A DNA stretch of 64,000 nt from Escherichia coli (GTDB lineage: Bacteria > Pseudomonadota > Gammaproteobacteria > Enterobacterales > Enterobacteriaceae): the NCBI RefSeq assembly GCF_050920415.1, contig NZ_CP169309.1. One strand, written 5' to 3'. Shown here one piece after another: positions 43,657 to 43,983 of this stretch. Position 1 is the stretch's first letter. Each line of letters opens with the position of its first letter. The translations under genes were made by a program, and so were the position numbers. Under the pieces are notes generated by a model that was given only the letters and a program-made list of their open reading frames with translations, ran no database searches and was not told the DNA's origin.

Positions 43657-43983
43657 CAGAATAATCTCCTGTCTGGTTTGCTTTTACTTCCTGTTTATAC
43701 AGCGGAAGGAATGACATAAAACACTGAAAACGGCGCTTCATCAGTACCGTTTCCAGAATTTTATAAAACTGGACCTGCTTAACATCTCTGATAAACAGAT
43801 CCGGGCGCTCGTCCTACGCATGGCAGGTGAGTGAATGGCGCTTTCTTCTACCCGGGTAGCGCCGACCTGTTAATGGGATGGATGATCCGGTATTACGTGT
43901 TTTTGACTATTCCGCCGTCGCTCGCGGGAAGGATTGCCCCGGTTATGGCTGGCTGGCGGAAACGGCGACACGTCCACGCGCTG

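Follow-up and report, generated by a model that had tools for sequence, protein, structure and literature searches.

A candidate family of structured RNAs at the lysis-packaging junction of lambdoid prophages in Escherichia coli

In a 64,000-nucleotide stretch of the Escherichia coli contig NZ_CP169309.1 (assembly GCF_050920415.1), referred to here as the window, a prophage gap of 327 bp (43657-43983) lies between the stop codon of the Rz gene and the start of a gene for an HExxH protein. Our comparative sequence analyses indicate that this gap, where the lysis module meets the packaging module, is non-coding, that its minus strand is probably transcribed together with the neighbouring genes, and that it encodes a member of a widespread family of structured RNAs. 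The original prediction had placed the gap exactly, as judged from the list of open reading frames (ORFs), had described its lysis and packaging flanks correctly, and had proposed that it might hold a small RNA, a packaging site or the remnant of a deleted moron. The first of these options is borne out far more strongly than had been expected there, as the conserved part of the gap reads as a multi-helix RNA with compensatory changes both within and between phage lineages. We regard the existence of a structured RNA fold at this locus as very likely.

The prophage in the window is mEp021-like (mEpimmI). Its junction is 86-89% identical to those of mEp021, mEp010, mEp013, mEp515, mEp044, mEp554 and MagusPhagus, and junctions of the mEpimmI type were found in 34 of 5426 complete E. 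coli genomes. The holin, lysozyme and Rz/Rz1 genes are located upstream of the gap, and an Sf6-type terS gene followed by terL is located downstream.

The fold and its constraint within the mEpimmI group

The fold was derived with RNAalifold and pair counting from 53 distinct mEpimmI sequences (alignment A1). Conservation of the element begins at about 43980, immediately past the Rz stop codon, and a different upstream junction in each of the relatives L015, L053 and L054 marks its 5' edge. The parts of the fold are as follows.

43835-43976, minus strand: whole structured RNA element, scored at 175.9 bits by the covariance model R1
43895-43973, minus strand: hairpin H1, in two parts (H1a and H1b)
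43968-43973 with 43895-43900, minus strand: H1a, the outer stem, ACGUGU/ACACGU
43955-43961 with 43910-43916, minus strand: H1b, the inner stem, UUCCGCC/GGCGGAA
43962-43967, minus strand: 5' side of the H1 internal loop, CGCCGU, conserved across lineages (CGCAGU in some)
43917-43954, minus strand: apical part of H1, nearly invariant within the group
43849-43892, minus strand: three-way junction of the RNAalifold helices P-A, P-B and P-C
43889-43892 with 43849-43852, minus strand: P-A, UACC/GGUA
43885-43888 with 43876-43879, minus strand: P-B
43865-43869 with 43853-43857, minus strand: P-C
43870-43875, minus strand: conserved junction linker CAUUAA
43858-43863 with 43837-43842, minus strand: pseudoknot between the P-C loop (GGCGCU) and AGCGCC, spanning 43837-43863
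43843-43848, minus strand: invariant linker GAAGAA, directly followed by the 3' strand of the pseudoknot

Over all 45 pairs, including those of the terminator described below, 98.5% of the cells in A1 are paired. Eleven pairs are changed on both sides, against 3.3 +/- 0.9 in shuffled alignments (none of 500 reached the observed value), and controls with slid partners gave 0-2 double-changed pairs and 39-45% pairing. H1a is 100% paired, with three of its six pairs changed on both sides, and H1b is 98.1% paired, with three of seven pairs so changed. In the divergent relative L054, both stems of H1 are rewritten (ACGCCU/AGGCGU and ACCUGCC/GGCAGGU) and the 38-nt apical part is changed at one base only; the predicted apical pairs showed no covariation within the group. 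In the junction, A-U is replaced by G-C in P-B (11 sequences) and in P-A (three sequences), and in the pseudoknot G-C is replaced by A-U in two sequences, in addition to G.U variants. P-C (121-125/135-139) crosses the pseudoknot helix (129-134/150-155) and both covary, the arrangement being that of an H-type pseudoknot. The P-C of the window contains one A.C mismatch (43868 with 43854). The C for U at 43854 that breaks this pair occurs in this window alone and creates a perfect 12-bp DNA palindrome, CTACCCGGGTAG (43848-43859), with a SmaI site.

The changes also carry information on the strand. Those that affect one side of a pair are mostly C to U, which produces G.U on the minus strand and would produce A.C on the plus strand; G.U cells outnumber A.C cells by 27 to 3 in H1b and by 90 to 13 in the terminator. 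This asymmetry indicates that the sense-strand RNA is what selection acts on.

The inverted repeat to which the original prediction had drawn attention, ccgggcgct (43801-43809) with agcgccgacc (43858-43867), is borne out only in part. Its complementarity is limited to 6 bp (GGCGCT at 43804-43809 with AGCGCC at 43858-43863), it was absent from the output of an inverted-repeat search (seed 6, minimum length 8), and its left arm falls inside a 59-nt segment (43773-43831) that is missing in 28 of 40 distinct relatives. The conserved and covarying partner of 43858-43863 is 43837-43842.

The gap had also been described as holding only very short frames. Frames of 55 and 44 amino acids on the plus strand and of 35 amino acids on the minus strand cross it, which makes the description a loose one; none of them is conserved. 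A six-frame inspection of ORFs in 40 relatives, together with the distinct versions (40-53), revealed no reading frame that is kept. Insertions or deletions of 1 nt occur at two places in all combinations, the variable columns have no three-base periodicity, a plus-strand candidate peptide gains a stop in one subgroup (TGG to TGA), a GTG start on the minus strand is lost in several versions, and the ORFs of the gap had no match in Pfam or PHROG. With frames unconserved, stops, indels and no periodicity, a small protein gene of the kind annotated as mEp013_65 was rejected.

Although non-coding, the element is strongly constrained. Its mean identity to the window is 94.2%, compared with 87.2% for Rz, 84.5% for the HExxH gene and 87.7% for terS, and its identity is the higher one in 56 of 57 loci when set against HExxH and in 52 of 53 when set against Rz. 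Such constraint, stronger than that on Rz, HExxH or terS, argues against a neutral relic of a deleted moron. Morons do insert at its upstream edge in some relatives. Across related prophages, where a lack of conservation had been named in advance as grounds for abandoning the original prediction, conservation and covariation are both clear.

The same fold in other phage lineages

Only mEpimmI sequences went into the covariance model R1, and the pseudoknot was left out of it. Outside this group it found full-length matches of 29-41 bits, with E-values of 1e-6 to 5e-10 (rough values, from a shortened calibration of the model). These came from the contigs L133-L136, whose HExxH protein is only 53% identical; from the IMG/VR phages L187 and L195, which carry a 121-amino-acid HExxH homologue and a different terS; from Escherichia phage JLK-2012, Salmonella phage 29485 and Bievrevirus Lambda_4C10; and from Shiga toxin (Stx) phage Stx2a EC3283, Shigella POCJ13, ASU11 and Stx2a_WGPS6. 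In an 18-sequence cross-lineage alignment, fitted to the structure of R1, 97.6% of the cells are paired, against 72.6% in shuffles, and 22 of the 26 modelled pairs are changed on both sides (121 cells against 44.5 in shuffles). The covariation score is 0.717, against 0.256 when shuffled (0 of 500), and slid partners are 40-55% paired. Support for the fold is thus much stronger between lineages than within the mEpimmI group. The covarying pairs are distributed over H1a (5 of 6), H1b (7 of 7), P-A (2 of 4), P-B (4 of 4) and P-C (4 of 5), and the arms of H1 are rewritten in other lineages as, for example, UAUCGU/ACGAUA, UGUUGU/ACAACA and AUUCCCG/CGGGGAU.

Because the pseudoknot lies outside the R1 model, its covariation provides an independent test. 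In nearly every lineage, the P-C loop is complementary to the bases directly after the invariant GAAGAA, the arms being GGCGCU/AGCGCC, GGCACU/AGUGCC, UGUCCGGU/ACCGGAUA, GUCCUGU/ACAGGAC, UCUCGAU/AUCGAGA or GUGCUUGU/ACAAGCAC depending on the lineage, and the helices are mostly 5-8 bp long, as opposed to 3.5-5.5 bp with shuffled tails. POCJ13 is an exception, in which a mismatch leaves only four contiguous pairs. Sequence conservation across lineages is confined to the unpaired parts (CGCCGU, CCAUrACCG, UCCUyC, CAUUA and GGUrGAAGAA); in the apical part of H1, CCAUrACCG and the pyrimidine motif UCCUyC (43928-43933) are kept.

R1 had no match at E <= 0.1 in lambda or in the K-12 prophage DLP12, and nhmmer searches of the window and of 976 kb of loci found no second copy of the element. 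A pattern search of metagenomes for divergent stems returned nothing, the same type of search on genome contigs gave one chance match in an alphaproteobacterial coding sequence, and a three-part gapped pattern added six chance matches and no members. Two further loci deserve mention. In the IMG/VR phage L183, R1 matches positions 72-216 weakly over its full length (15 bits, E = 0.0024), and an HExxH homologue lies about 1 kb further downstream. In L138 (GCA_901456055.1), from a phage with Terminase_2 and an SPP1-type portal, a 266-nt gap (2235-2500) upstream of a 128-amino-acid HExxH homologue contains the element-like motifs CAGCCAUAG and UCCUCCCGGCG and a hairpin followed by UGAUAAUG; R1 had no match there, and this gap may hold a more distant relative.

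The element is widely distributed, as estimated from BLAST sequence matches rather than from members verified with the covariance model. The JLK-2012 version matched 4582 of 5426 complete E. coli genomes (84%), 3393 of them with at least 80% coverage, at 11,830 places in all, with a median of two per genome and up to 11 copies in some genomes. The L187 version matched 274 phage records (160 Stx-converting, 89 Escherichia, 15 Enterobacteria, six Salmonella and four Shigella). The IMG/VR contigs with the mEpimmI version are the same 47 that have the HExxH gene. A link with the HExxH gene only was rejected, since in Salmonella 29485, ASU11 and POCJ13 the HExxH gene is missing and terS follows the fold directly. 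Of the 11,830 places, 695 are on plasmids, possibly phage-plasmids.

In every case examined, the element is in the sense orientation and is placed after the lysis genes and before terS. Its immediate neighbours vary on both sides: Rz, an ORF of 100 or 200 amino acids, an ASCH gene or Rha upstream, and the HExxH gene, small ORFs, terS itself or the right end of a linear record downstream. Additional genes between Rz and the element were seen in L015 and in L127/L128 (the 100-amino-acid ORF), in L053 at 2129-2731 (the 200-amino-acid ORF) and in L133 at 1919-2185 (ASCH/DUF3850). Insertion or recombination has occurred repeatedly at this upstream edge.

Existing annotation largely passes over the element. 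Among the twelve JLK-2012-version matches listed, 11 have no annotation beneath them and one lies under a 'hypothetical protein', and no annotated feature lies beneath the 153-nt conserved block in any of the 34 E. coli genome matches listed. The mEp013 record (PP180002) has a 171-nt plus-strand ORF over the gap (mEp013_65, a PHANOTATE call), and similar 'hypothetical protein' calls occur in other records; upstream of the terminator, the structured RNA carries only such spurious plus-strand ORF annotations in the mEp021 and mEp013 records. The paper on the mEp021 group, which describes three nut sites, an N-like protein (Gp17) and dependence on Nus factors, is silent on the gap region (PMC11893012).

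Comparison with known RNAs gave no assignment. Rfam 15 contained no family matching any version: the element in the window had no hit at E <= 10, the versions of L196, L197 and L187 had none at the gathering score, and the only matches were spurious, to microRNA families and Twister-P5 (E 0.4-4). ARAGORN found no gene resembling a transfer RNA. Mimicry of CRISPR (clustered regularly interspaced short palindromic repeats) type I-E or I-F repeats was rejected, the best alignment scores (9 and 7) being within the range of shuffles, and so was a type III toxin-antitoxin RNA, as a repeat search reported no tandem repeats in the gap. In a partial search of the literature, only late-region small RNAs (sRNAs) at another location were found (PasA-D, StxS and lambda 6S/LPR2). 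We could not find a description of the present family, and it may have been described earlier under another name.

Terminators and flanking sequences

Downstream of the fold, the remainder of the gap contains a terminator, an optional insertion and the leader of the HExxH gene. These features and the two genes bordering the gap are listed here.

43715-43765, minus strand: intrinsic terminator, with a stem-loop (43724-43756), a tail UGUUUUAUG (43715-43723) and an A-tract (43757-43765)
43773-43831, minus strand: 59-nt insertion, present in the window and in 12 of 40 distinct relatives
43657-43714, minus strand: spacer and ribosome-binding site of the HExxH gene (AGGAG at 43666-43670), from the alignment of relatives
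43984-44454, minus strand: Rz ORF (Pfam Phage_lysis, E 9e-25), with Rz1 embedded
43126-43656, minus strand: HExxH ORF, at the downstream edge of the gap

The stem-loop 43724-43756 is a strong predicted intrinsic terminator. The region 43714-43766 on the minus strand folds at -22.8 kcal/mol (z = -6.2) with 13 pairs, two of which have compensatory changes. The tail UGUUUUAU (43716-43723) has six U in eight positions, of which only four are consecutive, and qualifies as a U-tract. According to the inverted-repeat search, the A-tract can pair with the tail (18-nt arms), and the stem could be extended to about 21 bp in a read-through RNA. A simple terminator scan misses this hairpin owing to an internal mismatch in the stem and a long apparent loop; the same hairpin is the predicted terminator in the records of mEp021 (MH706966, TERM_6) and mEp013 (ARNold T11). 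Another hairpin (43771-43802), with UUUU after it, is formed largely from the 59-nt insertion; for the 65 nt at 43768-43832 the folding energy is -24.1 kcal/mol (z = -3.3).

A canonical terminator, CCCGGC...GCCGGG followed by UUUUU, was also noted on the minus strand at 45155-45178, directly before the ribosome-binding site of the holin gene (start at 45135). The 116-nt region folds with z = -4.2, and the terminator matches TERM_5 of mEp021. With one terminator before the holin and another in the gap, the lysis cassette is bracketed by two terminators.

The gap is not uniform in base composition. Its description as GC-rich holds for the right half (0.607 at 43801-43983) and fails for the left half (0.382 at 43657-43800) and for the gap as a whole (0.508; 0.46-0.47 in the surroundings). 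The 58-nt spacer between the terminator and the HExxH start codon exists as two unrelated alleles among the relatives, and in L006 and L131 an HNH gene is inserted in it. Free-standing HNH genes (HNH_3/AP2-type) were observed at L006:1897-2499, L131:613-1185, L051:1752-2273, L052:4250-4753 and L132:1697-2200; around the lysis-terminase region they occupy intergenic positions that differ from one relative to another, as would be expected for mobile homing endonuclease genes. The HExxH protein itself belongs to phrog_1365 (unknown function) and has no match in Pfam or PDB; one database name for it is 'PolyVal metallopeptidase superfamily'. Many homologues of about 120 amino acids correspond to its N-terminal part of about 125 amino acids, and a Lys-rich C-terminal tail ending in VPRxxxxKRG is found only in the long forms (the mEpimmI group, P0118 and P0121; KRW in P0118).

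Possible roles of the RNA in the late transcript

The reading we lean towards, with slightly more confidence than doubt, is that the RNA is a cis-acting element of the late transcript, placed where lysis genes give way to packaging genes, and that in the mEp021 group the terminator is read through by polymerase modified by Q, a homologue of which is encoded at 51051-51770 in the window (95% identical to mEp021 gp37). Under this reading, the amount or the form of the message that arrives at the first packaging genes would depend on the RNA. Possible means are the binding of a factor or RNA polymerase, a role as a site of processing or stability, and translational control of the gene that follows; in phages of the mEp021 group, polymerase coming from the lysis genes would stop at the terminator unless it had been modified by Q. 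Of the possible modes of action, we would place an element that binds a factor or polymerase first (in the mEp021 group acting jointly with the terminator), a processing or stability site (possibly self-cleaving) second, and a released regulatory RNA third.

A positional parallel is put of phage HK022, a cis-acting RNA for processive antitermination that consists of two adjacent stem-loops (about 70 nt) just after the early promoters. Like put, the element is a structured sense-strand RNA in an operon of a temperate phage, upstream of terminators and a long run of genes, and neither needs a particular downstream gene. Unlike put, it is located in the late region, comprises a hairpin, a three-way junction and a pseudoknot over about 140-170 nt, and in most lineages has no terminator after it.

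Several observations weigh against a cis-acting role or against the fold on which it depends. Cis action on the late transcript is deduced from position and strand, and these phages encode Q, which already makes late transcription resistant to terminators. A terminator right after the fold was seen only in the mEpimmI and L133 lineages, with none comparable in the others examined; as it is absent after the fold in most lineages, control of a terminator cannot be the general mechanism. Alternative pairings between fold and terminator, possible in 52 of 53 sequences, never covary, and L054 loses them. As regards the fold itself, H1 (z = -0.3) and the pseudoknot hairpin 43833-43872 taken alone (z = -0.6) are no more stable than shuffles, and the case for it consequently rests on covariation; the cross-lineage alignment, having been fitted to the R1 structure, is biased toward that structure.

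A switch of the attenuator or riboswitch type was considered separately and rejected: helices 19-25/240-246, 66-71/258-263 and 129-134/255-260 are possible in 52-53 of the 53 sequences, and every variant breaks them. The element shares with riboswitch-type and protein-binding leader RNAs a multi-helix junction, an H-type pseudoknot, invariant unpaired purines and, in the mEpimmI group, a terminator upstream of the operon, but it differs from riboswitch-type leaders in having no Rfam match and no conserved alternative pairing with the terminator.

A broader version of the cis-acting reading would take the fold as a new class of functional RNA that gates the expression of packaging genes in most lambdoid E. 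coli prophages, including the Shiga-toxin phages. We put this forward tentatively and think it rather unlikely as it stands; the forms that such a class might take are a self-cleaving ribozyme, a switch sensing a ligand or protein, or a put-like RNA that reprograms polymerase.

An alternative hypothesis is that the fold and its terminator are released as a trans-acting sRNA of about 210-270 nt, derived from a 3' untranslated region or by processing, that regulates host or phage messenger RNAs (mRNAs), either through base pairing or because it sequesters a protein. The unit has sharp and conserved edges (about 43980 to 43715) with a terminator at its end, its invariant unpaired UCCUUC, CAUUAA and GAAGAA could act as seeds, and a precedent exists in the operon-embedded, Hfq-bound sRNAs encoded by phage lambda (bioRxiv 10.1101/2024.10.31.621285). 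However, a sigma-70 scan found no conserved promoter upstream of the element and none in the gap, the terminator tail has only four consecutive U, most of the other fold-bearing lineages have no terminator, and when the window was scanned for duplexes, all matches were GC-driven and inside coding regions. We thus consider a released sRNA to be an unlikely explanation. A single complementarity may be recorded here: the conserved stretch CUACCUGGGUAGAAGAAAGC of the element is complementary to 43576-43615 on the minus strand (codons 14-27 of HExxH), with a duplex energy of -20.4 kcal/mol, about four standard deviations below the scan mean, which may be a coincidence arising through Phe codons.

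The element resembles lambda 6S/LPR2, StxS and the Pas sRNAs in being an unannotated RNA in lambdoid late regions that is common in pathogenic E. coli (bioRxiv 10.1101/2024.10.31.621285; bioRxiv 10.64898/2026.05.13.724894). Those RNAs, in contrast, are short, consist of a hairpin and a terminator, and map to the PR'-tR' region ahead of the holin gene, whereas the element lies downstream of Rz and has a complex fold. The reported prevalence also differs, at 12.4% for the Pas sRNAs (bioRxiv 10.64898/2026.05.13.724894) as against BLAST matches of the element in 84% of complete E. coli genomes.

Of similarly small probability is a dedicated RNA processing element, that is, an RNase target or a self-cleaving ribozyme at which the late transcript is cut between the lysis and packaging modules. 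In every lineage, the element does lie between two modules of one polycistronic transcript, a position that it shares with the RNase III sites of T7 and with lambda sib/tI, and its junction, pseudoknot and invariant unpaired purines exceed what a plain hairpin needs. No known ribozyme family matches it, however, the best being Twister-P5 on the wrong strand (E = 3), and RNase III sites are simple long hairpins, while the conserved part here is a junction with a pseudoknot.

A DNA packaging site, either pac or an accessory of cos recognised by terminase, was among the options of the original prediction and now appears highly improbable. The element is always upstream of the terminase genes, it is near the record end in several records, and the linear record of Lambda_4C10 continues for only about 130 nt beyond it on the right. 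The pattern of conservation is nevertheless that of base pairing: in six helices, including the pseudoknot, the arms vary and stay complementary, unlike a DNA site that binds protein, and G.U pairs occur on one strand only. In addition, terS lies 1.4 kb away here and 1.5 kb away in JLK-2012, and this terS is Sf6-like, while pac regions of the P22/Sf6 type lie in or next to terS. The pRNA of phi29, a phage RNA with a three-way junction encoded beside packaging functions, is a remote analogy only, with no similarity to the element in sequence or model, and we know of no evidence that lambdoid packaging needs an RNA.

Even less credible is the idea that Gp17, the N-like antiterminator of the mEp021-group phages, has a fourth nut-type site here, composed of boxA and boxB. 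The group is Nus-dependent with three known nut sites (PMC11893012), and CAUUAACA with GGUCAG and a hairpin resembles nutR1 (CUCAUUAACAAUCUGGUCAGCCGC). Against this, the boxA-like match is 12 of 17 (core 9 of 11), a level that 35-57 other sites on each strand of the window also reach, an nhmmer profile of the region gave no nutR1 match, the putative boxB hairpin has a 15-nt 'loop' that is P-C plus a strand of P-A and a stem that is the pseudoknot, and the fold is present in phages of other groups. Elsewhere in the window, at about 60894 on the minus strand, a 15 of 17 match to the boxA-plus-spacer consensus (GGCACTTTAAAAATCAGG) was observed about 210 nt upstream of nutR1 (about 60681), outside the three published nut sites.

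Equally hard to credit is a plus-strand small protein gene, or a neutral relic retained purely as a linker through which modules recombine: PHANOTATE calls the 171-nt ORF in mEp013, 'hypothetical protein' calls exist elsewhere and the modules bordering the element differ on either side, as a linker would predict, but the frames are unconserved, acquire stop codons and match no family, and compensatory changes reflect selection on pairing beyond mere homogenisation.

If the RNA is functional, one of the commonest prophage sequences of E. coli would be an unannotated complex RNA, often in several copies per genome and present in the records of Stx1- and Stx2-converting phages. It sits where the late transcript passes from the lysis genes to the packaging and head genes, a step that the lambda paradigm assumes to be unregulated, and its absence from lambda and DLP12 may explain why it was missed. 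Provided that the wider literature confirms that it is undescribed, the family could become a new entry in an RNA-family database, and recognition of the RNA would remove the spurious 'hypothetical protein' calls across the element. Should the gating of packaging-gene expression prove true, the late programme of these phages would have a control point that had so far escaped notice, and the element offers a concrete, mutable target for asking how late expression is tuned in Stx phages and other lambdoid phages.

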